From a bacterium (GTDB lineage: Bacteria > Bacteroidota > Ignavibacteria > UBA10030), in assembly GCA_043803945.1 (NCBI GenBank), contig JAZDJN010000085.1, forward strand, positions 1 through 60,712: DNA of 60,712 bases, given 5' to 3'. The notes beneath the pieces were generated by a model that did no database searches, was not told where the DNA came from, and saw only the letters and a list, made by a program, of their open reading frames with translations. Each line of letters starts with the position of its first letter. Positions within the stretch are counted from its first letter, which is position 1. The position numbers and the translations under genes were made by a program. Of the stretch, positions 2-26,485 are shown one piece after another.

Positions 2-496
2 ACGTACAGCGACTGGGCCCGTCTCACTGAAGGATATTATCTCCTGCGCACAAACATCTAAGCCAAAGGCTTATCAGCCTCTGGCTGAAAAGACTGGACG
101 CCTGAGGATCTTTGGAAAGCCTACATCCAACTGACAGAAGCTGAGGCAGCCTTCCGCATTCACAAACAGGACTTGAAGCTTCGTCCAATCTGGCACCAAC
201 GAGAGGATCGTGTGCAGGCCCACATCCTGGTGTGCTTCCTTGCCTATGTGCTCTGGAAATGTCTCGGCCAGATATGTAAGCGATCAAGCTTTGGCAACGA
301 GCCGAGGACTATTCTTGAAGAAATAAAAAGCCTGACGCTCATCGATGTCGTTCTTCTGACGCGCACGCAAATCGAGATCAGACTCCGGTGCATCTCGAAA
401 CCGGAGCCGCCTCTGGCCCTCTTGCTTCAGAGACTCGATCTGAGACCCCCTGAACGGCTCGAATTGAAACTCAAAAATGTAGTGCCGACTTTTTAA
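2..496 (+). pseudogene. IS1634-family DDE transposase, C-terminal part, interrupted by in-frame stops
   Basis: Frame from nt 2 reads [60 protein letters not shown]; removing 59-88 restores a continuous IS1634-like sequence. Confidence 0.85.
59..88. repeat. 30-bp palindromic insertion in the transposase
   Basis: TAAGCCAAAGGCTTATCAGCCTCTGGCTGA; arms AGCCAAAGGCT / AGCCTCTGGCT are inverted with one mismatch. Confidence 0.8.
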
Positions 497-588
497 CATT
501 TATGCCCTATGCTCAACGGAATCGCCATCTTTTCTTCACAACTGTCGAACTTGGGTTAGAGATATATTCACCACGGGAGATTACCACT

Positions 589-765
589 ATGGAGAAGAAA
601 GAGTTTGATGTTGTTGAGGTTGTGAGGAGAATTCGAGATGCACAATTCGAAGATAGGAAGGGAAAATCTCAACAGGAAATTCTCAAGTACTACCATGATC
701 AATTTGTTCGTCTTGAACAAAGAGTACATAAGAAAGAACAAGACTTAAGCCCTTATAGACGGTAG
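589..765 (+). CDS. Small hypothetical protein (58 aa), possibly the partner of a PIN-type toxin
   Basis: MEKKEFDVVEVVRRIRDAQ...; GGGAGA upstream of ATG 589; family assignment is recollection only. Confidence 0.5.
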   Translation: MEKKEFDVVEVVRRIRDAQFEDRKGKSQQEILKYYHDQFVRLEQRVHKKEQDLSPYRR

Positions 766-774
766 CAACATGTA

Positions 775-824
775 AGAAGCCCGTCTTTTCTCTGAGATAT
801 ATCTGAGTAAAAAGACGGACTTCT
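775..824. terminator. Hairpin between convergent genes, likely bidirectional terminator
   Basis: AGAAGCCCGTCTTTT (775-789) / AAAAGACGGACTTCT (810-824), followed by an A-run (a U-tract on the minus strand). Confidence 0.6.
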
Positions 825-835
825 AAAAAAAATAT

Positions 836-857
836 CCCTCGGCAAAATGCCTTCGGG
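836..857. repeat. Short palindromic element, same family as 17960-17981
   Basis: CCCTCGGCAAAATGCCTTCGGG matches the reverse complement of 17960-17981 at 18/22 nt. Confidence 0.6.
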
Positions 858-931
858 CTGGTAATAGATGGACTGCCTAATCGTCTATCATCTCAAGTCT
901 CTCTTCTCACCCTAAGAAGGTTTTGAACGCC

Positions 932-1477
932 TTATATGGTTTGATTCAGAATTTCTTTCCGGGGGGAGGGGATCACAACCTTTTCGACGAGCAATCCCTT
1001 CTTTTCTACCATCGCGGCGCCGGCATCGACAGCAGCCTGAACAGAGCCAACATCGCCGGTAAACATCACCCAGCCTTTGCCTCCGATGGCCATCGCCAGG
1101 TGGATTTCCATCAATTCAACAGATGCTGATTTGACTGCTGCATCGGCTGCTTCGATAATGGCTGCCACAGAGAATGCTTCAATGATACCCAGTGCCTTGA
1201 CGTCGGGCGTGTGTGCAACACCGCTGATTGCGGGAAATACGGTGGGATGGACGTTTGGAATGATAAAGTGATCGATAATCTGGTGGCCGCCTATAGCAAC
1301 ACCTATTTCCACACTGGCGTTTACCGCATCGACACTTCCACCGACGAGGACCACATACTTGCCGGGGCAAATCGTGCGGTTCACCACAATCTCAACATGA
1401 GCAGTCTTCAGCATAGCATCGGCAACCTGAATGCCTTTCGCAATGCTCGATAACTCTACCAATCCAATTGCCACCAT
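932..1477 (-). CDS. pduT: BMC-T tandem-domain shell protein, PduT-like
   Basis: Two BMC domains in 181 aa; RTICPGKY retains the PduT Fe-S-ligating Cys; adjacent to a PduS-like gene. Confidence 0.85.
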   Translation of the reverse strand: MVAIGLVELSSIAKGIQVADAMLKTAHVEIVVNRTICPGKYVVLVGGSVDAVNASVEIGVAIGGHQIIDHFIIPNVHPTVFPAISGVAHTPDVKALGIIEAFSVAAIIEAADAAVKSASVELMEIHLAMAIGGKGWVMFTGDVGSVQAAVDAGAAMVEKKGLLVEKVVIPSPRKEILNQTI

Positions 1478-13541: not shown

Positions 13542-13681
13542 AATTCTGTGGTCATGCAAGTTGCTTAAGTGATTACGCCACTGGCTTCACGATTTTTTCG
13601 ATGCTCTCTTCAATTCATTCTAGGCAGAATACTGTATTCTGCATTTCTCTTCCGTACACGCTGCAATTTTTGGAGTATAAC

Positions 13682-15691
13682 ATGATCAACAGATTAATGA
13701 TATCACTAGAATTGATTGCCCTTCTTTCCGTTACCCCTGGATTTGCTCAAACGCTCTGGCTCGATGAACTTGACCTCTCGACAATGGCCCAAAGCTGGGG
13801 TTCACCGCAGGTAAAGAAAAGTGTCGATGGCAATCCATTGACTGTTGCCGGACAACACTACGTCCGAGGTGTTGGAACACATGCCATTAGTACACTCTTA
13901 CTGAAACTTGATGGAAAAGCGAAGCGGTTTTCTGCCATGGTTGGTGTTGATGATGAGGCAAACAAGGATGGCACAATAAACTTTTTTGTTATCGGCGATA
14001 AGAAAATCCTCTGGGAAAGCGGCAAGATGAGAAAAGGGGATGTTGCGAAGAAGGTAGATGTTGATCTTGTTTCCGTAAAAAAGCTTGGGCTGCTTGTGAC
14101 CGATGCAGATGATGGGATTAATTATGATCATGCTGACTGGTGCGACGCAAAACTTGAATTGAATTCACCGGTGAAGCTGAAGGATATCGTCGACGCTCCC
14201 GTGAAGATTGACAAGAGACCGTATATCCTGACACCAAAAGAATCGCCAAAGCCCCGCATCAACGGTGCAAAAGTGTTTGGCGCTCGCCCGGGAAATCCCT
14301 TCCTCTATAGCATCCCTGCTTCAGGAAATCGGCCGATGGAATTTAAAACATCGGGATTGCCCGAAGGTTTGTCGTTGGATCCGAAAACAGGAAGTATCAC
14401 CGGCACAGTGGAAAAGAAGGGTGAATACAGTGTTATGCTTCACGCTGCGAACAGCCTTGGAACATCTTCACGTTCATTGAAGATCGTCATCGGAGATCAC
14501 ATTGCACTCACACCGCCGATGGGCTGGAATAGCTGGAATTGCTGGGCAGGCGCAGTCTCCGATGAAAAGGTTCGCACTTCAGCCGATGCGATGGTCACAA
14601 GCGGACTGATTAATCATGGCTGGTCCTTTATCAACATCGACGACTGCTGGGAGATCAAACCGAAATCCAATGACCCCATGCTCAGCGGTGAACCACGCGT
14701 TGCTAAAGGGTTCATCAACACAAATAAAAAATTTCCCGATATGAAAAAGCTAGCCGATTATGTTCATGGCCTCGGTTTGAAAATCGGAATTTACTCTTCA
14801 CCGGGTCCACTCACCTGCGCTGGATTTACTGCAAGCTACCAATTCGAGGAGCAGGATGCGCAGCGTTATGCAGAATGGGGAATCGATTACTTGAAATACG
14901 ATTGGTGTTCGTACAGCCAGGTTGCTCCAAAGAATCTCACCCGCGAAGATTATAAAAAGCCCTACGTTGTTATGCGTGTCGCCCTGGACAAAGTGAAACG
15001 TGATATTGTCTATAGCCTTTGCCAGTATGGAATGGATAAGGTCTGGGAATGGGGCTCGGAAGTCGGTGGTAATTGCTGGCGGACAACCGGAGATATTACC
15101 GATACATGGTCGAGTATGTCTGAGATTGGATTTGCACAGGCGGATCACGCCCCATACGGCGGACCCGGTCACTGGAACGATCCCGATATGCTGGTTGTAG
15201 GCCTTGTCGGCTGGGGCCCGCAGCTTCGTCCTTCGCGTCTCACACCGGATGAACAGTACACCCATATCAGCTTATGGAGCTTGCTCGCCTCTCCGCTTTT
15301 GATCGGATGCGACCTCGCGCGTCTCGATGAATTCACAAAGAATCTCCTGATGAACGATGAAATCATCGAGGTAAATCAAGACCCGCTCGGAAAACAGGCA
15401 AAGCAGATTTTCAATAAAAACGCCCGCCAAATCTGGGTGAAGGAGATGGAGAATGGATCGAAGACCATAGGCTTTTTCTATGCAGACCGCGGAAAAGGTA
15501 ATCCGGTCGACTACCTCAATTGGGATGCCGCAAAGAGTGTTAAGATTGCGTTGAAGGGCTCGGATATTGGAATTCAGGGATCATTTAAGGTGCGCGACCT
15601 CTGGCGTCAAAAGAACCTGGGATCATTCAAGAATGAATTCACTGCAGAAGTCCCGTACCATGGCGTGGTTTTAGTGAACGTGACACAGTGA
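13682..15691 (+). CDS. GH27 alpha-galactosidase with NPCBM and Ig-like domains
   Basis: Signal peptide; RGVGTHA (NPCBM); GLPEGLSLDPKTG.ITG; TPPMGWNSWN, IDDCW, YLKYDWC, WRTTGDI, WNDPDML. Confidence 0.92.
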   Translation: MINRLMISLELIALLSVTPGFAQTLWLDELDLSTMAQSWGSPQVKKSVDGNPLTVAGQHYVRGVGTHAISTLLLKLDGKAKRFSAMVGVDDEANKDGTINFFVIGDKKILWESGKMRKGDVAKKVDVDLVSVKKLGLLVTDADDGINYDHADWCDAKLELNSPVKLKDIVDAPVKIDKRPYILTPKESPKPRINGAKVFGARPGNPFLYSIPASGNRPMEFKTSGLPEGLSLDPKTGSITGTVEKKGEYSVMLHAANSLGTSSRSLKIVIGDHIALTPPMGWNSWNCWAGAVSDEKVRTSADAMVTSGLINHGWSFINIDDCWEIKPKSNDPMLSGEPRVAKGFINTNKKFPDMKKLADYVHGLGLKIGIYSSPGPLTCAGFTASYQFEEQDAQRYAEWGIDYLKYDWCSYSQVAPKNLTREDYKKPYVVMRVALDKVKRDIVYSLCQYGMDKVWEWGSEVGGNCWRTTGDITDTWSSMSEIGFAQADHAPYGGPGHWNDPDMLVVGLVGWGPQLRPSRLTPDEQYTHISLWSLLASPLLIGCDLARLDEFTKNLLMNDEIIEVNQDPLGKQAKQIFNKNARQIWVKEMENGSKTIGFFYADRGKGNPVDYLNWDAAKSVKIALKGSDIGIQGSFKVRDLWRQKNLGSFKNEFTAEVPYHGVVLVNVTQ

Positions 15692-15906
15692 GAACGTTTA
15701 TGGGATGATGCAAAGATCAAAATGTATAATGCAAAATGACAGTGTAAAAATATAAGTATAATTTGGTAAATACCGGCTCACCTGAATATAATGTCATGAT
15801 GATCATAATCAGACCCAATTGATATTTTTATTATTCAATGATGTTACGCAGGAAGAAGAACCTGCATGATTGAAGGGATTAATCTTGTTTTTGACCTCCC
15901 CTTTTT

Positions 15907-16106
15907 GGGGCCGACTAAAAGAAAAAACCAGGACGTCACGAACCCCCGCCTGCCATAATAGTTTCAGATGAGGCGGGCAGGACTTCGTGACGCAAGATGC
16001 GGAAAACATTCAGATTTCATGTGTCACGGTGTGCCCGCCTGCCCCTTTAGATCAAATATGTCGGGCAGGGACCGTGACACCCTTGGCGTACTTTATGGTC
16101 GGCGCC
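15907..16106. repeat. Nested miniature inverted-repeat element
   Basis: Outer arms GGGGCCGACTAAAAG / CTTTATGGTCGGCGCC; two inner hairpins each holding CCCGCCTGCC-N16/17-G(G/T)CGGGCAGG. Confidence 0.7.
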
Positions 16107-16212
16107 ATATGGAGAGGTTGGAGTTTGTTTATAAAAACCCATTTTCATTTTTGATTCTTGATTTCTGATTTTCTATAGAGCCGGTGCAATTACTGAAAAG
16201 GAAAAACATACA

Positions 16213-17136
16213 ATGACCGAACAATTGAAAGGTGTTTTTTCAATTCTACCGACACCCTTTACTGCAAATGGAGAGATTGATGTACCGAGCCTCAAACGAG
16301 TCATTGATCTCTACATACGAGTTGGTGTGAACGGCCTTACGGCATGCGGTGTGATGAGCGAGGCGGCCCGAATGAGTGAATCGGAACGGCTCCTTGTGAT
16401 GGAAACCGTGATGCAGTATGTGAATAATCGGGTTCCAGTAGTTATTGGCACATCAACGGATGGCCTGCAAACCTGTATAGAACTCTCAAAAAAATCGAAG
16501 AGCCTCGGGGCAGCGGCAGTCATGATCAGTCCGCCCCGTTTGCCAAAGCTTAACTCTGCGGCAGTTATCAAGCATTTTGCCGGTGTTGCACAGGCGGTGG
16601 ATATTTCACTCATCATCCAGGATTTTCCACCGATCTCAGGCTTTACTATGGAGCCGTCACTTCTTGTGAACATTGCCCGTGAAGTTCCGGCGGCAAGAAC
16701 CATCAAGCTCGAAGATCCGCCAACGCCGTTCAAGACTGCGCGCGTTCTTGAGCTGGCTGAAGGAATGCCAGTGAAAATCTTTGGCGGTTTGGGTGGGACC
16801 TATCTCATTGAAGAATTGATGGCAGGAGCCACCGGTGCGATGACTGGATTTGCTGTACCGGAAATTCTAGTGAAGGTGGTTGCATTATTCCATTCCGGAC
16901 AACGATCTGAAGCGGCTGCACTCTTCTATCGGAATGTTGCTTTGATGCGATTCGAGTTTCAGGAAAGTATCGGCATGGTGATTCGTAAAGAGATGCTTAA
17001 GCGGCGTAAGGCGATTGCGTGCGAAATGACACGTGCACCCGGCGCTGCACTCGATCGATCCACACGGGAAGCGCTCGATTCATTACTCACATGGTTCTTA
17101 CAACAGAATGCGGAGTTACAATGGACCTTGGACTAA
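16213..17136 (+). CDS. DHDPS/N-acetylneuraminate-lyase family class I aldolase
   Basis: PTPF...GEID, G..SEA, RVPVVIG, IIQD, IKLED (Schiff-base Lys), GATGAMTG. Confidence 0.85.
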   Translation: MTEQLKGVFSILPTPFTANGEIDVPSLKRVIDLYIRVGVNGLTACGVMSEAARMSESERLLVMETVMQYVNNRVPVVIGTSTDGLQTCIELSKKSKSLGAAAVMISPPRLPKLNSAAVIKHFAGVAQAVDISLIIQDFPPISGFTMEPSLLVNIAREVPAARTIKLEDPPTPFKTARVLELAEGMPVKIFGGLGGTYLIEELMAGATGAMTGFAVPEILVKVVALFHSGQRSEAAALFYRNVALMRFEFQESIGMVIRKEMLKRRKAIACEMTRAPGAALDRSTREALDSLLTWFLQQNAELQWTLD

Positions 17137-17912
17137 GTGGTAAAGTTGCGATGGTAGCCGGTGCCAGCAAAGGGCTTGGTTTTGCAGTTGCGCGAACGTT
17201 GGCAATGGAGGGTGCTATAGTGTCAATGGTTTCCCGCGACGCCGATGCGATAGCATCTGCACGGGATAAGATTCTCAGGGAAACAACAGCTTCCATCCTT
17301 GCTCTCCCGGTCGATGTACGCTTTCCCCAGGCCATTGAAGAGTGGAGAGAAAAAACTCTAAAAGAGTTTGGGAGAATCGATATGCTGTTTGCCAACTCCG
17401 GCGGGCCACCGGCAGGCGGTTTCCTGGCCTTCGATGATCCGGCTTGGCAGAATGCCGTTGATCTGTTGCTGCTGAGTTCGGTCCGTATGGCGCGTGCCGT
17501 GATCCCCGCGATGAAGCAGCAAGGGGGAGGAAGTATCGTCTTCTCCACCTCTTCTTCTGTCAAAGAACCGATAGAAAACCTCACACTCTCGAATGTCGTT
17601 CGCGCCGCCATTCCTGCATTGGCAAAGACACTTGCCAGGGAGTTCGCTTCGTCCAATATTCGTGTGAACAATTTGATCCCCGGCCGTATCGATACCGATC
17701 GTGTTCGCGAGCTTGATACCATCAACGCCCAGAAGAAGGGAATCACCGCCGAAGAACAAAAGAAGGTGATGTCTGCGGCAATCCCAATGGGGCGGTACGG
17801 TGAGGCCGATGAATTTGCACGCGCTGTGGTTTTTATCATGTCTCCCGCTGCATCCTATATCACCGGTGCCACATTGCAGGTGGATGGGGGTGTGGCGAAA
17901 AGTGTGATGTAG
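17121..17912 (+). CDS. SDR-family oxidoreductase
   Basis: GASKGLG, NSGGP, SNVVR (atypical catalytic motif), PGRIDTDR, YITG..LQVDGG; start ATG 17121. Confidence 0.9.
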   Translation: MDLGLSGKVAMVAGASKGLGFAVARTLAMEGAIVSMVSRDADAIASARDKILRETTASILALPVDVRFPQAIEEWREKTLKEFGRIDMLFANSGGPPAGGFLAFDDPAWQNAVDLLLLSSVRMARAVIPAMKQQGGGSIVFSTSSSVKEPIENLTLSNVVRAAIPALAKTLAREFASSNIRVNNLIPGRIDTDRVRELDTINAQKKGITAEEQKKVMSAAIPMGRYGEADEFARAVVFIMSPAASYITGATLQVDGGVAKSVM

Positions 17913-17959
17913 GAAGTATAAAGCAGTAAGAGTAGAGTAGTAAGAAATCACAAGGCTAA

Positions 17960-17981
17960 CCCGAAGGCGTCCCGCCGAGGG
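17960..17981. repeat. Short palindromic element, same family as 836-857
   Basis: CCCGAAGGCGTCCCGCCGAGGG. Confidence 0.6.
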
Positions 17982-18237
17982 CAGGTGAATATTATCATCG
18001 ATTTGCGTATGAGCCAGATGTATGTTCTATCGGAATCTCCTTCACTTGGTGATCGTTAGGATGGCCGATTCCCAAGTGGCTGCATCCGTGGATAAAATGA
18101 AAAAATACGTAGAGAAGATTTTCACCGATTGCACACCAATCTCAGTCAACTTCAATGGTATGAAATTGACTGAGAGCATCTGAAAGACGGAACGGACAGC
18201 TACTGCGAATGAGAGGAATGAGAAAAGGGATAGTGAG

Positions 18238-19164
18238 ATGGGAGTAGCAAGAAAAGCCTTGCTCTGGATTTCGGAGAACCGGAAGTTGCGCCAGTCGTTG
18301 CCGAAGTATCGGTTTATCCAGCGTGCCGTCAAACGATTTATGCCGGGTGAACGGCTGGAAGATGCAATTGCCGCTGCGCAGCAGCTCAAAGCAAATTCTC
18401 TGAATACGATTTTTACACTCCTCGGTGAAAATGTTGCCGATAAGCAGGAGGCGAAGCAAATCGTCGCTCAGTACCTCATGGTACTCGATGAGGTCCATAA
18501 GCATGGGCTCGATACGTACATCTCGGTGAAGCCCACACAGCTCGGCCTCGACTTCGATATGGAGTTGTGCTATCAAAATCTCGTAACGATTGTTGAGCGG
18601 GCAGGAGTACTGAATAATCTTGTCTGGCTTGATATGGAGCAAAGCCAGTATGTCGATAGAACGCTCGAACTTTACAAGCGGGTAAAAACCCGGTACCCTA
18701 ATGTCGGCATCTGTCTTCAGGCATATCTCTATCGTACAAAACGGGACCTTGAAAGCCTCTTTACAATGCAGCCGTTAGTGCGGCTCGTCAAGGGTGCATA
18801 CCTTGAACCGGCCAACATTGCCTATCCGATGAAAAAGGATGTTGATGAGAATTATTTTCAGCTCGTGAAGATGATGCTTGAAAAAGTGAAATCTCATAAC
18901 GTCACCATCGGTGTGGGCACGCACGATACGCTTCTGGCGCGCTGCATCCAGCAGACAGCAAAATCACTTGATTTGTCCAAAACTGATTATGAATTCCAAA
19001 TGCTCTACGGCATCAAAAGCGACGAACAACTGCGCCTTACCGGATTGGGCTATAAGGTGCGTCTACTCATCAGCTATGGAACCTTTTGGTTCCCATGGTA
19101 TATCCGGAGACTCGCCGAACGCCCGGCTAATGTCTGGTTTGTTGTTAAGAATATTTTTCCCTGA
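18238..19164 (+). CDS. Monofunctional proline dehydrogenase
   Basis: RFMPGE, LGE, SVKPTQLG, LDME, QAYL.RT, RLVKGAY, EFQMLYG, YG..W.PWY.RRLAERPAN. Confidence 0.93.
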   Translation: MGVARKALLWISENRKLRQSLPKYRFIQRAVKRFMPGERLEDAIAAAQQLKANSLNTIFTLLGENVADKQEAKQIVAQYLMVLDEVHKHGLDTYISVKPTQLGLDFDMELCYQNLVTIVERAGVLNNLVWLDMEQSQYVDRTLELYKRVKTRYPNVGICLQAYLYRTKRDLESLFTMQPLVRLVKGAYLEPANIAYPMKKDVDENYFQLVKMMLEKVKSHNVTIGVGTHDTLLARCIQQTAKSLDLSKTDYEFQMLYGIKSDEQLRLTGLGYKVRLLISYGTFWFPWYIRRLAERPANVWFVVKNIFP

Positions 19165-19197
19165 TCTATCCTCGATTGCATTCTTGAAAGGAAGGCT

Positions 19198-21468
19198 ATG
19201 ACTCAATTTCGAAAATTAATGTTCTCCGCTTTTCTTATACTCGAACTTTGCATCGTAAATAGTTTTGCGCAAGGCCAGAGAACGCTTTCTCTCATCCCAC
19301 AGCCGATACAGATAAAACAATCGCGTGGCACATTTACCATCGATCAGAAAACAGTGATCCAGGTTGATAAGAAAGCAAAAGTGCTCAAACCGATAGCCGA
19401 TTATCTTGCTGAGCGGCTCCGTACGGTTACTGGATTTCCCCTGGTGATTTCAGAAGATGCAGGGAAAGCGGGTAAAAACTCGATTTGGCTTGGATCGGAA
19501 AAGCTTGATTTTTCTAATAGCCACGAAGCATACGAACTGATTGTCGATACCAAAGGCGTGCAGATCAATGCAGCAACACCACAGGGGATCTTCTACGGAG
19601 TCCAAACACTTTTCCAACTGCTTCCGGCAGCATCTGAGAAGCGGGAACTCGTACCAGGAATCACCTGGGCGTTGCCGCAGGTGGAGATAGAAGATGCTCC
19701 GCGGTTCAGCTGGCGCGGCATGCATCTCGATGTCGGCAGACATTTTATGCCAAAGGAGTTTATCAAAAAATATATCGATGTCCTCGCTCTCTACAAGATC
19801 AACATCTTCCATTGGCACCTCACGGAGGATCAGGGCTGGAGAATCGAAATAAAAAAATATCCCAAGCTCACCTCGGTTGGCGGCTGGCGCATGGAAACCA
19901 TGCAGGACAACAAACCGCACGGAGGTTTCTACACACAGGATGATATCCGTGAAGTGGTGAGCTATGCTGCTCAACGGTTCATCACCATTGTCCCGGAAAT
20001 TGAAATGCCAGGCCACTCCGTGGCCGCACTGGCGGCATACCCTGAGCTTTCCTGTTCCGGCGGCCCCTTCAAAGTCGGTACAGAATGGGGCGTGATGAAC
20101 GATGTCTATTGCGCAGGAAAGGAAAAGACCTTCCAGTTCCTGGAAGATGTACTCGCGGAAGCCATCGACTTGTTTCCGGGTCCCTTTTTCCATATCGGCG
20201 GCGATGAATGCCCCAAAGTTCGGTGGACTAACTGTGTGCACTGTCAAAAGCGAATCAAGGATGAAGGATTAAAGGATGAACATGAGCTTCAAAGCTATTT
20301 CATCAAGCGAATCGAAAAATTTCTTACCGCGAAGGGCAAACGCCTGATCGGATGGGATGAGATTTTGGAAGGCGGTCTTGCACCGAATGCAACTGTCATG
20401 TCGTGGCGCGGCATGAAGGGAGGAATCGATGCGGCGAAATCCGGGCACGATGTGGTGATGTCTCCCACGTCACACTGCTATTTTGATTTCTATCAGGGGA
20501 CGGTGAGCGAACCACCGGCGATCGGCGGTTTTCTCCCTATCGACACAGTGTATGCCTATGAGCCAATTCCATCCGAGCTGAATGCTGAAGAGGCAAAGCA
20601 TGTGCTGGGTGCCCAGGGAAATGTCTGGACTGAGTATATACCGACAACGGAACAGGCTGAGTATATGCTCGTTCCCCGTGTTTGCGCACTCAGTGAGGTG
20701 GTTTGGTCGCCCAGGTCAAAAAGGAATTTTGCAGATTTTATGCAGCGGCTTGAAGGGCACTACGATCGATTGAAAGCGCGCGGCATCAACTTCCGGATCC
20801 CTCCGCCGATTGGGCCGACAGGAAAGAAAGTATTGATTCGGGATACGGTGGTGACAATGACCAGCCCCATTGCATCGGGGACGGTCTATTATACGCTCGA
20901 TGGTATGGAACCAACAAAAGCCTCCTCGAAATACACACAACCTATAACCATCCATGGCGATCAAGTCCTCAAGGCACGTCTTCTGCTTTCCAATGGTGCC
21001 ATGAGTAATATTCTCTCCAGTACATTTTTCAGTGTTGATCCGAAAATCAATGGCATCGAGTTCAATTATTATGAAGGTGTCTGGGAACGAGTGCCGGATT
21101 TCAATTCGTTGACACCGAAGTCAACCGGCATCGCCTACAGCATCGATGCTGATCCGCTACAGCATCGGCTTCGTTCGATCGGATTGCGATTCAAGGGAAT
21201 CATCCAGATTGATGCGGAAGGTGATTATGTTTTTTCGCTTAATTCCGATGACGGCAGCAAGCTCTTCATCGATGGCAAAGAGGTTATCAATAACGATGGC
21301 ATGCACACGGCTCGTGAACTCAGTGGTACCATTACGCTGGCAAAGGGGAAACATACACTTGAAGTATGCTACTTCCAACGTGCAGGTGCCCGCGTGTTGG
21401 ATCTGTTTATCGAAGGGCCGGGCTTGCCAAAGCAGCCGCTCTCTCCAAAGATGCTGCTTCTGAGGTAA
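19198..21468 (+). CDS. GH20 beta-N-acetylhexosaminidase with FN3-like and PA14 domains
   Basis: PRFSWRG.HLDVGRHF, HWHLTEDQGWR, PEIEMPGH, HIGGDE, YYTLDG.EP, SDDGSKL. Confidence 0.95.
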   Translation: MTQFRKLMFSAFLILELCIVNSFAQGQRTLSLIPQPIQIKQSRGTFTIDQKTVIQVDKKAKVLKPIADYLAERLRTVTGFPLVISEDAGKAGKNSIWLGSEKLDFSNSHEAYELIVDTKGVQINAATPQGIFYGVQTLFQLLPAASEKRELVPGITWALPQVEIEDAPRFSWRGMHLDVGRHFMPKEFIKKYIDVLALYKINIFHWHLTEDQGWRIEIKKYPKLTSVGGWRMETMQDNKPHGGFYTQDDIREVVSYAAQRFITIVPEIEMPGHSVAALAAYPELSCSGGPFKVGTEWGVMNDVYCAGKEKTFQFLEDVLAEAIDLFPGPFFHIGGDECPKVRWTNCVHCQKRIKDEGLKDEHELQSYFIKRIEKFLTAKGKRLIGWDEILEGGLAPNATVMSWRGMKGGIDAAKSGHDVVMSPTSHCYFDFYQGTVSEPPAIGGFLPIDTVYAYEPIPSELNAEEAKHVLGAQGNVWTEYIPTTEQAEYMLVPRVCALSEVVWSPRSKRNFADFMQRLEGHYDRLKARGINFRIPPPIGPTGKKVLIRDTVVTMTSPIASGTVYYTLDGMEPTKASSKYTQPITIHGDQVLKARLLLSNGAMSNILSSTFFSVDPKINGIEFNYYEGVWERVPDFNSLTPKSTGIAYSIDADPLQHRLRSIGLRFKGIIQIDAEGDYVFSLNSDDGSKLFIDGKEVINNDGMHTARELSGTITLAKGKHTLEVCYFQRAGARVLDLFIEGPGLPKQPLSPKMLLLR

Positions 21469-21525
21469 GATATTTGAATAACGCATTCTACTTCTGTTGT
21501 ATGCTATTCTGATACTGGAGCAATT

Positions 21526-22488
21526 ATGCATCGTCATCCTCATAATCCGATTCTCACGCGCCGTAATGTTCCGCCTATTCCTCCACACCTTATTGATGTG
21601 ACTTCGGTATTTAATCCGGGAGCCATACGGTTCGGTGAGAAATATCTCCTGATGCTTCGAGTACAAAGTCGAAGCAGGGAGACATACTTCTTGGTAGCGG
21701 AAAGTTCAAACGGAGTTGATTTTACTGTATCGAATGAAATTGTTCACTTTGATGGCATTGAAAAGGTTAAAGAACCCATCTATCATTGTTACGATGCACG
21801 AATCACTCAACTCGATGGTGTCTACTATATAATGTTTGCAATGGATATGGAAGGCGGCTGTCAGCTTGGGCTTGGGAAGACGGTAGATTTTAAGTCGTTC
21901 GAATTTCTGGGGATTACCTCCAACGAAGATATTCGCAACGGAGTCCTCTTCCCTGAGAAGATCAACGGGAAATATCTTCGCCTCGACCGCCCGAATAAAT
22001 ATCAGCATGCAGGAGGCCCCTCCTCCGGTACCACTATTTGTCTGTCTGAATCGGATGATCTGTTGAACTGGAGACGTGTTGCGCCGGTGATGAGCGGACG
22101 GTTTCATTATTGGGATGAACTCATCGGCCCGGGAGCTCCGCCGGTAAAGACCAGAACCGGGTGGCTGTGCACCTATCATGGAGTTGCCACACATTTTGGG
22201 AGTGCGAATATCTATCAGGGTGGAGTATTCATTCTCGATCTTCATGATCCGGAGAAGCTTATCGCCCGCGGACGATGGAATATTCTCGAGCCGCGGGAAA
22301 ATTACGAGTTGACAGGCCAGGTTCCCAACGTCTGCTTCCCCAGCGGGATGATCGTCGATGAATATGACGAACAGGGGTATGCGAAGGACGAGAGCAGAGC
22401 CCTGATTTACTATGGTGCAGCAGATACGGTGGTGGGTTTGGTGAGAACGACAATTAAGGAATTGATTCAAACGGCAATAGGAATTTAG
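21526..22488 (+). CDS. GH130 beta-mannoside phosphorylase/glycosidase
   Basis: NPIL, VFNPGA, YDARI, RNGVLFPEKINGKY.RLDRP, YHGV, GQVPNVCFP.G, IYYGAADT. Confidence 0.92.
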   Translation: MHRHPHNPILTRRNVPPIPPHLIDVTSVFNPGAIRFGEKYLLMLRVQSRSRETYFLVAESSNGVDFTVSNEIVHFDGIEKVKEPIYHCYDARITQLDGVYYIMFAMDMEGGCQLGLGKTVDFKSFEFLGITSNEDIRNGVLFPEKINGKYLRLDRPNKYQHAGGPSSGTTICLSESDDLLNWRRVAPVMSGRFHYWDELIGPGAPPVKTRTGWLCTYHGVATHFGSANIYQGGVFILDLHDPEKLIARGRWNILEPRENYELTGQVPNVCFPSGMIVDEYDEQGYAKDESRALIYYGAADTVVGLVRTTIKELIQTAIGI

Positions 22489-22502
22489 TCGAGAGGTGGG
22501 TT

Positions 22503-22597
22503 CACCACGGAGGCACGGAGAACACGGAGTCGATATTTCTGAATTAATGACAAAGAACCAATATCTGTCAATCTCAGTGATCTCTGTGTCTCAGTGG
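22503..22597. repeat. Empty inverted-repeat element built from ~9-nt triplet arms
   Basis: CACCACGGAGGCACGGAGAACACGGAG (22503-22529) / CTCAGTGATCTCTGTGTCTCAGTGG (22573-22597). Confidence 0.7.
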
Positions 22598-22645
22598 CAG
22601 GCCATTCGATCGGATTTATAAGAGAATGACGAAGAAAGGATCTGT

Positions 22646-23632
22646 ATGAAAAGAAGAACATTTGTTAAGTCCGCTTCACTCGCAGGTGTGGCATCGATAG
22701 TGGGATCGACGGATTCGTTCGCGTTTAATCGCATTGGCATAAATCACTCGCTGGGCCCAATGGTACTTTCAACATGGGATTTCGGACCCGCGGTCACAGA
22801 AGTTGCTTATAAGATTCTCAAGGAGGGTGGAAACCTTCTCGATGCGGTGGAAGAGGGAGTGAAAATTCCTGAAGCCGATCCAAAAGTCACGAGTGTCGGT
22901 TACGGCGGAGCACCCGATCGTGAAGGGAAGGTAACACTCGATGCATGTATTATGGATGGCAACGCCAATTGTGGTTCTGTGTTGTTTCTCGAGAATATTC
23001 TTCATCCAGTTTCTGTTGCGCGGCTTGTAATGGAAAAAACTCCGCACGTCTATCTCACCGGTGAGGGTGCACTGCAATTCGCACTGGAGAATGGGTTCAA
23101 GAAACAAAATATGCTGACCGAGGAATCGAAAAAAGCGTATGAGGAGTGGTTGAAATCGAGCGGTTATCAGAAAAAGAAGATCGATAAGAACAATCACGAC
23201 ACCATCGGCCTGCTGGCGATGGATGGAAAAGGGAATATGGCTGGTGCCTGCACCACGAGCGGCATGGCCTACAAAATTCGCGGCCGTGTGGGGGACTCTC
23301 CAATAATCGGTGCCGGTTTGTATGTGGATAATGATATCGGAGGCGCAACTGCGACTGGAATCGGCGAAGCGGTTATTAAAGTTGCAGGGAGCTTTCTTAT
23401 TGTAGAGTTAATGAGGCAGGGAAAGTCTCCACAAGAGGCGTGTCAGCTTGCTCTCGAACGCATTGTTCACAAGCAGCCGCAGTATATGAAGGATCAGAGT
23501 TTCCTTGTCGGATTTATTGCATTGAGGAAGGATGGGGAGCTCGGGGCGATGAGTTACAGGAAGGGGCTCCAGTACTCTCTCAACACCGATGGGAAAAACA
23601 GGGTCTTCGATGCTGAGTATCTTGTGAAGTAG
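22646..23632 (+). CDS. aspG: N(4)-(beta-N-acetylglucosaminyl)-L-asparaginase (glycosylasparaginase), Tat-exported
   Basis: RRTFVK Tat motif; SVGYGG.PD, TLDACIMD, HDTIG autoproteolysis site, TTSG..K..GRVGDSPIIGAG, ATG.GE. Confidence 0.93.
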   Translation: MKRRTFVKSASLAGVASIVGSTDSFAFNRIGINHSLGPMVLSTWDFGPAVTEVAYKILKEGGNLLDAVEEGVKIPEADPKVTSVGYGGAPDREGKVTLDACIMDGNANCGSVLFLENILHPVSVARLVMEKTPHVYLTGEGALQFALENGFKKQNMLTEESKKAYEEWLKSSGYQKKKIDKNNHDTIGLLAMDGKGNMAGACTTSGMAYKIRGRVGDSPIIGAGLYVDNDIGGATATGIGEAVIKVAGSFLIVELMRQGKSPQEACQLALERIVHKQPQYMKDQSFLVGFIALRKDGELGAMSYRKGLQYSLNTDGKNRVFDAEYLVK

Positions 23633-23844
23633 AGTCAAGCGCCATTGGAGTACTCCACGGTGGCAAGGCACAGACTTGCCACACAAAGCGGACAAATTAC
23701 GCTGGAATATTCTTTGAATTAATTTTGCGTTTGTACTGGCACGGTAGGACCATGCCAGCGAATGGATCTCTTCTCAAAGCGCAGTGGGACTGTGCTCATG
23801 AAAATTTTTTACTAGAGCAGCGAAAAATCTAAACAAAAAAGAAA

Positions 23845-24870
23845 GTGGAAAACATGATCAAATGCACGAATAATTCTCTCACGCTGCTGGGAGCAATACT
23901 TATCTTAATCGCACTCCAATCGATCGCCCTCTATGGTCAAACTCATGTCCCCCTTTTAGGGAAGCCCGAAAAGATTCTTATCAATGGTAAACCACTCGAG
24001 TTGGAAGGCACGCCGGCACCGCTTGTCTATGATTTCAATCGCGATGGAAAGAACGATCTCATCGTTGGCGAATTCCCGGGAGATAAAGCACGGATCTATC
24101 TTAACATCGGTACAAAAGCGGAGCCGAAGTTTGAAACCTACGCCTATCTACAGGCAGACGGTGAAGATGCAGTGATCGAGGGTGGCTGATGCATCGGCTT
24201 CGATCCACAGGTTGTGGATCTCAATGGCGATGGCGTTGTGGAATTCGTCTCGGGTGATTATGCCTCCGGGAATATCTACTACTTTGAAGGAACTCCAAAC
24301 GGTTATAAAAAGAAGGCAATCATTCACGAGGATTGGGAGCTTGAAAATAATCAAGCGCCAATGAACCGCTGGATGGGGACAGCCAGTTTTGTGGATTGGG
24401 ATGGCGATGGCGACTTCGATATGATTGTTGGCGATGTTCAGGGGGGCGTCCGATTGAATATCAATGAGGGAACGAAAACGCACTGGAAATTCGGAAAGCG
24501 CCGCCCGCTGATGGTTGGTGAAAAGCCCATGAAGGTGATCCAAAAGTCGGATCCCGTGCCTGTGGATTGGGATCGCGATGGATTTCTCGACATCGTTGTT
24601 GGCGATGAAGCCGGCGGCATCACGTTCTTTAAAGGAAACAAAGACAAGACATTCGAGGAAGGCATTTCCCTTTTCACCGGGAGTAAGGTCGCTTCAGGAA
24701 AATACACTGCGGTTTCCGATTGGTGGGTGAAAGATCGCGGGTGGGAATGGGCACGTATTCGCATCTGTGTGACAGATTGGAATAATGACGGCAAGCTCGA
24801 TGTGCTCGTCGGATATACAAGTTTCGATCAGGAGAAGAAATCAGAAATTGTACTACTCCCGCAGAAGTAA
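23845..24870 (+). CDS. Secreted FG-GAP/VCBS-repeat protein with in-frame TGA (24187-24189), candidate selenoprotein with a Sec-Cys motif
   Basis: ORFs 23845-24189 and 24214-24870 are in one frame, joined as EGG-TGA-CIGFDPQVVDLNGDG; one signal peptide; five DxNxDGxxD-type repeats; SECIS-like hairpin directly after the TGA. Confidence 0.75.
24190..24232 (+). promoter_or_regulatory. Candidate bacterial SECIS element
   Basis: Perfect 8-bp stem GATCCACA (24202-24209) / TGTGGATC (24213-24220), loop GGT, starting 12 nt after TGA; lower stem CATCG (24192-24196) / CGATG (24228-24232). Confidence 0.7.
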
Positions 24871-25025
24871 ACTAACGATAACCCTTACCGGTTCGGCGGC
24901 AAGGCCCAGCCTTGCCACACAATAAATAAAAGGATCTCTTATACTGGCACGGTAGGACCATACCAGCGGGTGACCCTCGGCGGCCAGGCACAGCCTTGCC
25001 ACACTACTAGTATCAGGGGGTTGTT

Positions 25026-25574
25026 ATGGGACTGCGTAGAATCTATAATACGCGGGAGAATACCGCATTTTTTATAACTACAACAATTACTCGCTTTGCG
25101 CGTGTATTTGTCGAGGATCGATATTGTAATCTTCTCATTCAAAGTATCCGGCAGTACCAACAACGTTATAAATTTCTGACACTAGGCTTTGTTGTTATGC
25201 CGAGTCATTTTCATTGGATCATAGTCCCTGACCTGATGCGAGGTTCGATCTCAGATATTATGCGGGACATCAAAAAAGATACAGCATGGAGAGTATTTGA
25301 ACAATTGGAGAATGATGGTCATTCTGAGTTATTGAGACTGTTTGAGTTTGAAGGAAAAAATGTCCGAGGACAAGATCGGAAATTCTGGATGAGAAGGTTT
25401 GATGATGTCATGATTCGTGATGATCTTATGTTGAAACAAACGCTCGAGTATATCCATTACAATCCTGTGAAAGCGGGGATGGTTGATGATCCAGAGGATT
25501 ATAGATATTCCAGTGCACGAAATTATATTGTAGGTGATCATTCAGTCCTCGATGTGATAACAGATTGGTGGTGA
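25026..25574 (+). CDS. REP-associated tyrosine transposase (RAYT, Y1 HUH)
   Basis: FITTT, VVMPSHFH (HUH), FW.R.FDD..IR, YIHYNPVKAG, YRYSSA; flanked by REPs. Confidence 0.92.
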   Translation: MGLRRIYNTRENTAFFITTTITRFARVFVEDRYCNLLIQSIRQYQQRYKFLTLGFVVMPSHFHWIIVPDLMRGSISDIMRDIKKDTAWRVFEQLENDGHSELLRLFEFEGKNVRGQDRKFWMRRFDDVMIRDDLMLKQTLEYIHYNPVKAGMVDDPEDYRYSSARNYIVGDHSVLDVITDWW

Positions 25575-25765
25575 TACATCACAGTGCGGTTTATACTGGC
25601 ACGATAGGACCGTACTAGCGGATGTCTCCTCGGTACTTATCAGTGGCAAGGCACGGCCTTGCCACACGTAAACGGTGTAATACATGATCGGTAGGAAATC
25701 CTCTACTGCTGCGAGGGAGCTCCAGCTCCCGAGCTGAAAGGAACTTACCATAAGCAATAACCCAA

Positions 25766-26485
25766 ATGATCATCCTTGAAGTCTGTGTTAACTCTGTCGA
25801 ATCGGCTTTCGCCGCGCAGGAGGGTGGCGCCTCCCGTGTGGAGCTCTGTGAAAATCTTCATCTCGGCGGAACAACACCAGGAGCGGACCTGCTCCAAAAT
25901 GTGCAGGCAGCGATTTCGATTCCCCTCCATGTTATGATTCGTCCCCGCGGCGGAGATTTTTTCTTCTGCGTATCGAAATTCCTTACGATGCAGAACGATG
26001 TCGAGATGGCGAAACAGCTCGGCGCCAACGGTGTTGTGCTGGGGATTCTCCATCCTGATCGGAAGATTGAGCTGGATCGTACGAGCAAACTCATCGAAGC
26101 CGCCCGCCCGCTCCGCGTTACATTCCATCGGGCATTTGACCTCACTCCCGATCCCATTCAATCGCTCGAGGAAATTATCTCATTGGGGATTGATTATGTT
26201 CTGACCTCCGGCGGTGCCGCTTCTGTCGACCAGGGCCTTCAGGCACTTAAATTATTGCAGCAACAGTCGAAAGGAAGAATCACTGTTTTGCCAGGAGGGG
26301 GAATTACCCTTACGAATGTTTTTTCCCTTGTTGAACAAACCGGTGTGCAACAGATCCACGTATACTCCGCTGTTCTTGCGGAAAAAAGACCGAACCGAGA
26401 GAGCCCACGTTTTTCGGACACCGAGCTTCCGGTAACAGATGCAAAGAAAGTAAAAGAACTGAGAGAGTTGCTTTCGTCTTTCTGA
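25766..26485 (+). CDS. cutC: CutC family protein
   Basis: LEVC, GGA.RVELC.NL..GGTTP, MIRPRGGDF, TFHRAFD, VLTSGG, PGGG. Confidence 0.95.
   Translation: MIILEVCVNSVESAFAAQEGGASRVELCENLHLGGTTPGADLLQNVQAAISIPLHVMIRPRGGDFFFCVSKFLTMQNDVEMAKQLGANGVVLGILHPDRKIELDRTSKLIEAARPLRVTFHRAFDLTPDPIQSLEEIISLGIDYVLTSGGAASVDQGLQALKLLQQQSKGRITVLPGGGITLTNVFSLVEQTGVQQIHVYSAVLAEKRPNRESPRFSDTELPVTDAKKVKELRELLSSF

Follow-up and report, generated by a model that had tools for sequence, protein, structure and literature searches.

Mammalian thioredoxin reductase carries a vicinal C-terminal Gly-Cys-Sec-Gly motif, in which the adjacent cysteine (Cys) and selenocysteine (Sec, U) can form an eight-membered selenenylsulfide ring. 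Methanol dehydrogenase is a Ca-binding beta-propeller with a functional vicinal disulfide beside its pyrroloquinoline quinone (PQQ) and Ca. According to the main text of a 2026 compilation, most catalogued prokaryotic selenoproteins are thioredoxin-fold redox enzymes, and the bacterial selenocysteine insertion sequence (bSECIS) is modelled there as a hairpin with a loop of 3-9 nt, a G in the first two loop positions, an upper stem of 4-16 bp, a UGA-loop distance of 16-37 nt and a minimum free energy of <= -7.5 kcal/mol (PMC13188914). Here we describe a gene found in a 60,712-nt contig of a bacterium of the Ignavibacteria (JAZDJN010000085.1, assembly GCA_043803945.1), the whole of which is called the window below. 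The gene occupies 23845-24870 on the forward strand (+). We suggest that it encodes one exported beta-propeller selenoprotein of the FG-GAP/VCBS type, decoded by SelB and a SECIS element, with a Sec-Cys dyad as its putative working site, and that its family, which is common in Planctomycetota, lies outside the current catalogues. For this reading as a whole we estimate a probability of about 85%.

The region 23845-24870 is one gene. Its frame comprises 341 codons plus the stop, and the only stop between the GTG at 23845 (the ATG at 23854 is the alternative start) and the TAA at 24868-24870 is the in-frame TGA at 24187-24189, just as an earlier note on this DNA, made from the letters alone, had read it. 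The genome search likewise returned the locus as one frame with 1 TGA. Under translation table 11 the gene falls into two open reading frames (ORFs). The first (23845-24189, 114 aa) has a hydrophobic N-terminus; the second (24214-24870, 218 aa) has no signal peptide and starts within a repeat, with the Val of VDLNGDG as its first residue, which bears out what the note had said of both. After read-through the junction is EDAVIEGG-U-C-IGFDPQVVDLNGDG, where the TGA would be read as U115 and the TGC at 24190-24192 encodes its vicinal partner, Cys116. The product is predicted to be secreted: about residues 1-32 (23845-23940) resemble a signal peptide with the core LLGAILILIAL, this segment is a lone helix in the AlphaFold2 model, and the N-termini of the aligned full-length homologues are comparably hydrophobic.

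Homologues support the read-through. A protein database search gave 1084 proteins at E <= 1e-5, the best of which form two length classes, 346-379 aa (82-95% of the query) versus many of 208-234 aa (the C-terminal 59-64%). The TGA column is Cys in 22/22 aligned full-length homologues, within the motif CCIGFDP. The short homologues begin at [MV]DLNGDG in 8/8 retrieved cases, which is the point where the second ORF of the window begins. They seem to be the second halves of genes that the same TGA has split, and public records carry such genes as truncated 'VCBS repeat-containing' fragments. The prediction that standard gene callers would divide the locus holds for the window, and we suggest that the family was overlooked because gene callers cut the gene in two.

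At the DNA level the set consisted of 80 loci from species-representative genomes, with further loci from five named genomes and from 301 genomes sampled within the phylum to which a Bythopirellula genome belongs (Planctomycetota). Loci L052 upward were scanned for C/U-C/U pairs whose 61-residue context matched query residues 85-145 with a score of at least 60. The scan gave 63 distinct sequences, of which 56 have TGA-TGY and 7 have Cys-Cys; among the latter, 4/7 lie at the homologous position (score of at least 100) and the remaining 3 are other repeats or weak matches. The column is thus Cys in all close full-length forms and TGA in 56 others, and the homologue comparison proposed in the earlier note came out in favour of Sec. 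TGA and hairpin coincide in position in 56 further distinct sequences, which is more than chance would give. The taxa given in the record titles for the TGA forms are Planctomycetota, Verrucomicrobia, Bacteroidales, candidate division KSB1, Chitinivibrionales, Aegiribacteria and Paracoccaceae. In the Planctomycetota sample 42/301 genomes match at E <= 1e-25, the seed being counted, and among the matches listed 50/50 have exactly one TGA. The same searches around a Verrucomicrobia genome and a Bacteroidales genome returned the seed alone (1/201 each), and a metagenome scan with a single protein, whose patterns were exact query peptides, gave 14 remote FG-GAP relatives and no close orthologue. 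We also note that the family is represented by seven separate genes in one Planctomycetota genome (contigs C9 and C10), every one of them having a single in-frame TGA.

The putative SECIS upper stem-loop (24202-24220), which codes for D-P-Q-V-V-D, is built from GATCCACA at 24202-24209, the triloop GGT at 24210-24212 and TGTGGATC at 24213-24220. It starts 12 nt past the TGA, and both coordinates and folding agree with the 8-bp stem and GGU loop reported in the earlier note. Folded alone it reaches -9.7 kcal/mol, and 0/200 shuffles were as stable. All constraints of the bSECIS model, as the main text of its source gives them, are satisfied by the 8-bp stem, the 3-nt loop opening with GG, the UGA-loop distance of 20 nt and this energy. 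The hairpin had originally been drawn in two parts. Its upper part proved to be conserved and covarying, as described below; the lower stem can be drawn in the window yet is not convincingly conserved, with 72% of cells paired across 57 homologues and one pair unpaired in 29/57, and because of this weak pairing we do not count it in the element. An Rfam scan of 23700-25000 gave four chance-level matches (E 3-9) and no SECIS family.

The covariation analysis used an alignment of the 57 Sec forms, the window gene included, over the 54 nt that begin with the TGA. In the 8-bp stem 83.5% of 455 cells are standard pairs, versus 23-45% when the 3' partner is slid by 1-3 columns. Five of the eight pairs have changed on both sides, in 42 cells, and the covariation score is 0.244 versus 0.141 +/- 0.012 for shuffled alignments (reached by 0/500 shuffles), figures that are inflated, as the tool itself warns, by sequence kinship and by the derivation of the structure from one row. 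This inflation counts against the hairpin as a SECIS, and so does the conservation of the P-Q-x-V-D peptide in the Sec forms, since part of the stem conservation could be protein-level. The individual substitutions are informative here. Pair 24-32 is A-U in 39 sequences, G-C in 14, G-U in 2, U-A in 1 and unpaired in 1, and its change turns CCA...GTG (Pro/Val) into CCG...GCG (Pro/Ala). A Val-to-Ala change is matched by a synonymous change of the Pro codon, so RNA constraint shapes the protein sequence. Further compensated forms are CCATG/CATGG (P-C-V-M-D), CCTCA/TGAGG (P-Q-V-E-D) and CCACG/CGTGG (P-R-V-V-D), and the last base of the Asp codon varies in concert with the middle base of the codon that precedes Pro (G-C 27, A-U 12). 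A WOR-3 homologue (L076:952-1005) has the TGA and an 8-bp hairpin, CAATCGCA-GTT-TGCGATTG, with the peptide I-A-V-C-D in place of the usual P-Q-x-V-D; in this case conservation of the predicted RNA structure does not depend on the peptide. The compensated amino-acid changes and the covariation at synonymous sites argue against a purely protein-level origin of the conserved stem, as far as aligned sequences can tell.

A control within the genes gave the same picture. A stem that ends at the first Asp codon and amounts to 5 bp-equivalents or more is present at 53/57 post-TGA repeats versus 18/215 other D-x-D-x-D-G repeats. The hairpin is therefore conserved, with covariation, among the TGA-bearing homologues, which was the outcome that the earlier note had tied to its proposal. 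No comparable stem was found at the homologous place in the 4 Cys forms for which DNA was available.

The genome also contains what is required for decoding. Searching it for the Sec machinery, as the earlier note had advised, gave selA (593.6 bits), selB (377 bits) and selD (324.4 bits), each over its curated profile cut-off, and ARAGORN found a tRNA-SeC with the anticodon TCA. The three genes lie within ~6 kb of contig C87 and the tRNA gene 7 kb further (116333-122193 and 129548-129642; loci L001, L002, L010, L015). SelD itself contains one TGA, at the UxxK position. TGA is otherwise an ordinary stop in this genome, since it ends 805 of the 2379 stop-free stretches of at least 300 codons, along with TAA (1061) and TAG (513). 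We consider it very probable that the TGA at 24187-24189 is a Sec codon served by the hairpin.

A genome-wide scan for TGA codons flanked on either side by 40 or more open codons, with a Cys no more than four residues away and a SECIS-like hairpin, gave 46 candidates, which are mostly noise; three look real and share one design. In the window gene this is the 8-bp stem with the GGU loop, 12 nt after the TGA. In selD it is CCGGCCA-GGU-UGGCCGG, with 7 bp, 15 nt after the TGA. The third gene, on contig C91 at 25100-26443 (-) (L187), has AUUGCUC-GGU-GAGCAAU, again with 7 bp, 11 nt after the TGA; it encodes a secreted thioredoxin-like protein with the motif F-Y-S-P-T-U-G-F-C-K (UxxC), matches to Pfam Thioredoxin_2, Thioredoxin_7 and Thioredoxin, a signal peptide and C-terminal tetratricopeptide repeats, and is a candidate for a second exported selenoprotein. 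Apart from these three, a possible further Sec gene is a reading frame on contig C31 at 126-1070 (-) (L188) that contains G-Y-M-U-T-C-L-S and a GGG-looped stem of 8 bp and matches nothing in Pfam or NCBIfam.

Two other explanations of the TGA were weighed against decoding as Sec. A true stop could stem from a nonsense mutation, a decayed gene (pseudogene) or a fault in the assembly; the locus would then yield a secreted fragment of 114 residues and perhaps a separate product of 218 residues. This would suit the two ORFs of table-11 gene calling, the C-terminal piece that stands as its own protein in public databases, and the lack of an orthologue of the window gene in relatives. However, 56 further distinct homologues and all 50 of the Planctomycetota matches listed share this TGA, intact forms have Cys at the column, the second ORF would begin inside a blade and without a signal peptide, and the one propeller modelled by AlphaFold2 requires both halves. 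Public DNA metagenome runs add a little: two contain small shares of the stretch (0.17 and 0.04) as short contigs from relatives, with most of the stretch uncovered, and a 151-nt contig from a public DNA run spans 24108-24258 with no listed difference at the TGA, which is weak evidence of doubtful independence. We hold a true stop to be very improbable. The TGA might instead be decoded as Gly, Trp or Cys, by reassignment or near-cognate read-through, with the hairpin as a generic stimulator of read-through. Genetic codes in which TGA means Gly or Trp exist, and Gly stands at the aligned column in 47/94 rows of the wider family. Against such decoding, TGA closes 805/2379 long open stretches in the genome, close homologues have Cys and not Gly or Trp, the hairpin satisfies the bSECIS constraints, and the Sec system is complete, with a TGA in SelD at a known Sec position and of the same hairpin design. 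Non-Sec decoding is thus hardly credible in our view.

The read-through protein belongs to the FG-GAP repeat proteins. It matches Pfam FG-GAP_3 (PF13517) with 77.7 bits (cut-off 26.9) and FG-GAP (PF01839) with 40.4 bits (cut-off 22.1), and five D-x-[DN]-x-D-G-x-x-[DE] motifs, starting at residues 63, 125, 184, 241 and 311, run across the junction, in line with the five repeats first noticed there. Found in the sequence and the alignments, all on the (+) strand, they are DFNRDGKND (residues 63-71; 24031-24057), in which D63, D67, G68 and D71 are invariant in alignment A1; DLNGDGVVE (125-133; 24217-24243), which overlaps the 3' end of the hairpin; DWDGDGDFD (184-192; 24394-24420), also placed by repeat family D1; DWDRDGFLD (241-249; 24565-24591), also placed by repeat comparison; and DWNNDGKLD (311-319; 24775-24801). 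These Ca-loop-like motifs may bind Ca, to judge from their D-x-D-x-D-G pattern. AlphaFold2, run with the 94-row alignment, gave a single domain (mean predicted local distance difference test score, pLDDT, 89.8; predicted template modelling score, pTM, 0.87) that is all-beta except for a lone helix at residues 2-31, and the two 10-residue blocks around the junction have pLDDT of 98 and 89. The top Foldseek matches in the PDB are propellers of the FG-GAP type, namely ITFG2 in KICSTOR, CRTAC1, TcB propellers, the PVL/AAL lectins and integrin alpha, with E values of 2e-7 to 1e-5 and template modelling (TM) scores of just 0.34-0.46. By this model the protein is related to the FG-GAP propeller fold class and appears to be no close copy of any member.

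The secondary-structure string places U115-C116 after the strand that closes blade 1 (96-108) and ahead of the one that opens blade 2 (122-124). In the usual propeller convention the D-to-A connection is on the face opposite to the 1-2 loops that carry the Ca motifs. Across the 57 Sec forms, conservation of at least 85% is confined to the scaffold residues (D/G/P/L/N/W), the U, the C, the G at the second position after it, and the P-Q that belongs to the hairpin. There is no other conserved non-scaffold feature in the 57 Sec forms, which leaves the dyad as the sole candidate for a functional site. Within it Cys116 is the best conserved residue. The earlier note had taken it that Sec is usually paired with a nearby Cys; this is true of the Sec forms, 57/57 of which have the Cys, and in the wider family it is the second Cys that remains constant (89 of 94 rows), the Sec column being Cys in 39 and Gly in 47. 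The Gly sister group (alignment A3) has S-G-C-[LM]-G-C-F-P-R-V-V, where Cys116 is kept and another Cys three residues on makes a CxxC. The dyad site hence seems to exist, on the aligned sequences, in three versions: U-C, C-C and C-x-x-C.

Directly upstream of the gene, at 13601-23632 (+), a same-strand run encodes an alpha-galactosidase (Melibiase_2) with NPCBM, a DHDPS-family protein, a proline dehydrogenase, a GH20 hexosaminidase with PA14, a GH130 protein and an Asparaginase_2-family protein, and looks like an N-glycan-type utilisation cluster by its domain content. Downstream are a gene for a REP-associated tyrosine transposase (25026-25574, +; NCBIfam NF047646, 119 bits) and, beyond it, a CutC-family gene (25766-26485, +; 228.6 bits), whose proximity to a Sec-Cys protein is suggestive of metals and whose adjacency is not conserved at other loci. 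Three copies of a composite palindromic repeat (GGCAAGGC.CAG.CTTGCC plus TACTGGCACGGTAGGACC...), at 23657-23764, 24893-25017 and 25589-25680, bracket the selenoprotein and transposase genes; in the whole assembly each pattern has 3 matches, all on contig C85. The element may have played a part in moving or rearranging the locus. A search of 40 relatives from the family and order of this genome gave no orthologue, the best matches being generic FG-GAP ones at E 1e-10, and neither did one of 400 genomes of the same phylum, where two other matches at E <= 1e-15 are partial (33-36%) and lie in ORFs of 628-680 aa. Likewise, selA was found in 1/41 genomes, this one only, and in none of the 40 relatives searched, so the Sec trait of the genome looks lineage-specific. 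Contigs C85 and C87 are not foreign-looking: their GC contents are 0.479 and 0.475 in a genome of 0.465, and their tetranucleotide correlations to the genome mean are 0.969 and 0.985 with a median of 0.977. The absence of the gene and of selA from the sampled relatives, together with the repeat-bracketed locus, fits horizontal acquisition.

On the basis of these data we propose the following course of events. SelB with Sec-tRNA would recognise the GGU-loop hairpin on the translating mRNA, and Sec would be inserted at codon 115. The product would then be exported through the N-terminal signal sequence, and the mature protein of ~310 residues would fold into a single FG-GAP-type beta-propeller with five Ca-loop-like motifs. 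Up to this point our confidence is high; for what follows it is moderate to low. U115-C116-x-G, the sole conserved residues beyond the scaffold, would lie in the linker between blades 1 and 2, and we take the dyad as the working site, on the face opposite to the Ca loops. Our first choice is that it switches between a vicinal selenenylsulfide and a selenolate plus thiol, as an extracytoplasmic redox centre.

For the U-C loop we would give the redox centre somewhat less than half of the functional probability, a soft-metal site about a third, and a structural cross-link or another role the rest. As a soft-metal or metalloid site the dyad would hold Cu(I), Hg(II), Zn, Ni or similar for sequestration, sensing or catalysis. 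In the 2026 table, as far as the main text goes, adjacent CU/GxUC motifs belong mostly to metal or organometal proteins (CopZ-family 2Fe-2S binders, MerB-like SaoL, HgcA, MbdU) (PMC13188914), and the window protein has G-G-U-C. The subfamily with CxxC in place of the dyad points the same way, CxxC being a metal-binding motif too, as does the CutC-family gene 900 nt downstream. However, the 57 Sec forms have no second conserved ligand (His, Met or a further Cys), the CutC adjacency is not kept at other loci and a transposase gene intervenes in the window, and both CxxC and vicinal dyads are just as typical of redox sites. A soft-metal site is a close second to the redox centre. A structural role of U-C (or C-C) as a vicinal cross-link in a lectin- or adhesin-like propeller, where Sec would be a neutral substitute for Cys, seems unlikely to us. 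The nearest Foldseek structures do include carbohydrate-binding and adhesion propellers (PVL, AAL lectins, integrin alpha, CRTAC1), and the run upstream contains glycan-degrading genes (GH27, GH20, GH130, Asparaginase_2-family); against this stand the low TM-scores (<=0.46), the glycan-gene context that is not conserved, the status of the dyad as the sole conserved non-scaffold feature, and the retention of a Sec, costly to insert, at this position in different phyla and, in one genome, in as many as seven copies.

Several points weigh against the reading of the gene as a selenoprotein with a redox-active dyad. The data fit redox and metal binding both and do not discriminate between them. Gly at the Sec column in 47/94 rows means that a chalcogen there is not universally required. 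The placement of U-C on a particular face comes from the predicted secondary-structure string and from general propeller topology. Over 56 loci with 1.5-kb flanks no neighbour is common to more than 3 loci, so the gene context gives no functional lead. The Sec of the protein is predicted from sequence, and the search of public sequencing runs listed no RNA run. Finally, the term 'uncatalogued' refers to the main texts of the catalogues, and the catalogues may list the family under a 'hypothetical protein' name.

With this in mind, the note, which did not recognise the fold from the classical selenoprotein families, agrees with what we found: the read-through protein matches 0 families of NCBIfam release 20 at E <= 0.1, and no description of it appeared in the literature that was searched. 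The main-text part of the 2026 table, with 119 prokaryotic selenoprotein families and subfamilies, has no FG-GAP, VCBS or propeller entry (PMC13188914). The same three terms are absent from the main texts of the 2026 review, deep-Sep, BSepDB and the Global Ocean Sampling (GOS) paper, and the full-text literature, subscription journals excluded, gave no FG-GAP/VCBS/beta-propeller selenoprotein and none of such a kind from Planctomycetota. The decoding mechanism is the standard one; what appears uncatalogued in these main texts is the family, together with its fold and its exported vicinal U-C site.

A family model that includes the position of the Sec would allow hundreds of gene calls to be corrected. 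An exported Ca-loop propeller with a vicinal Sec-Cys would broaden the scaffolds known to use Sec, and the family points to selenium-dependent chemistry outside the cytoplasm in Planctomycetota. It is also a natural experiment on the constraint that a SECIS RNA puts on protein sequence. The host genome itself has a Sec system unseen in 40 relatives, with at least three Sec-TGA genes of one hairpin design. In the widest form of our proposal this would be the first recognised beta-propeller selenoprotein family, extracytoplasmic, with a vicinal Sec-Cys as its sole conserved functional element and chemistry that has no described counterpart, missed through split gene calls, among the commoner selenoproteins of Planctomycetota (about 1 in 7 sampled genomes, up to 7 copies), and acquired together with the Sec system by the organism of the window; we give this wider claim an even chance.

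The locus can be set beside several known systems. It is like other SelB/SECIS selenoproteins in its in-frame UGA, its downstream hairpin in the coding region with a 3-nt loop starting with GG and a 20-nt spacing, its homologues with Cys and with UGA, and the full sel set. Unlike the bacterial selenoproteins catalogued in the main texts, which are mostly of the thioredoxin fold, the window protein is predicted to be an FG-GAP beta-propeller. With the CopZ-family GxUC/CU forms, SaoL, HgcA and MbdU it shares the G-x-U-C or C-U spacing, as these are described in the main text (PMC13188914); it differs from them in having no sequence or family relation and no NCBIfam or Pfam match to them. The resemblance to mammalian thioredoxin reductase is limited to an adjacent Cys and Sec flanked by Gly. 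The order here is Sec-Cys, the dyad is internal, the fold is unrelated, and the protein would be exported; it has no flavoprotein domain, no C-terminal G-C-U-G and no pyridine-nucleotide disulfide oxidoreductase domain among its Pfam matches. Methanol dehydrogenase is likewise an analogy only, since the window protein has another blade type and no PQQ-propeller Pfam family. The closest relation is to the FG-GAP/VCBS propellers (the integrin alpha head, CRTAC1, ITFG2, the fungal PVL lectin and TcB), with which the protein shares its Pfam matches, its D-x-D-x-D-G loops and its top Foldseek structures. We know of no such vicinal dyad in the propellers of integrin alpha, CRTAC1, ITFG2, PVL lectin or TcB. 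Unlike them, the window protein has five repeat motifs in ~310 residues, TM-scores of 0.34-0.46 to its nearest structures, and a predicted Sec-Cys dyad, Cys-Cys in some homologues, between blades 1 and 2.

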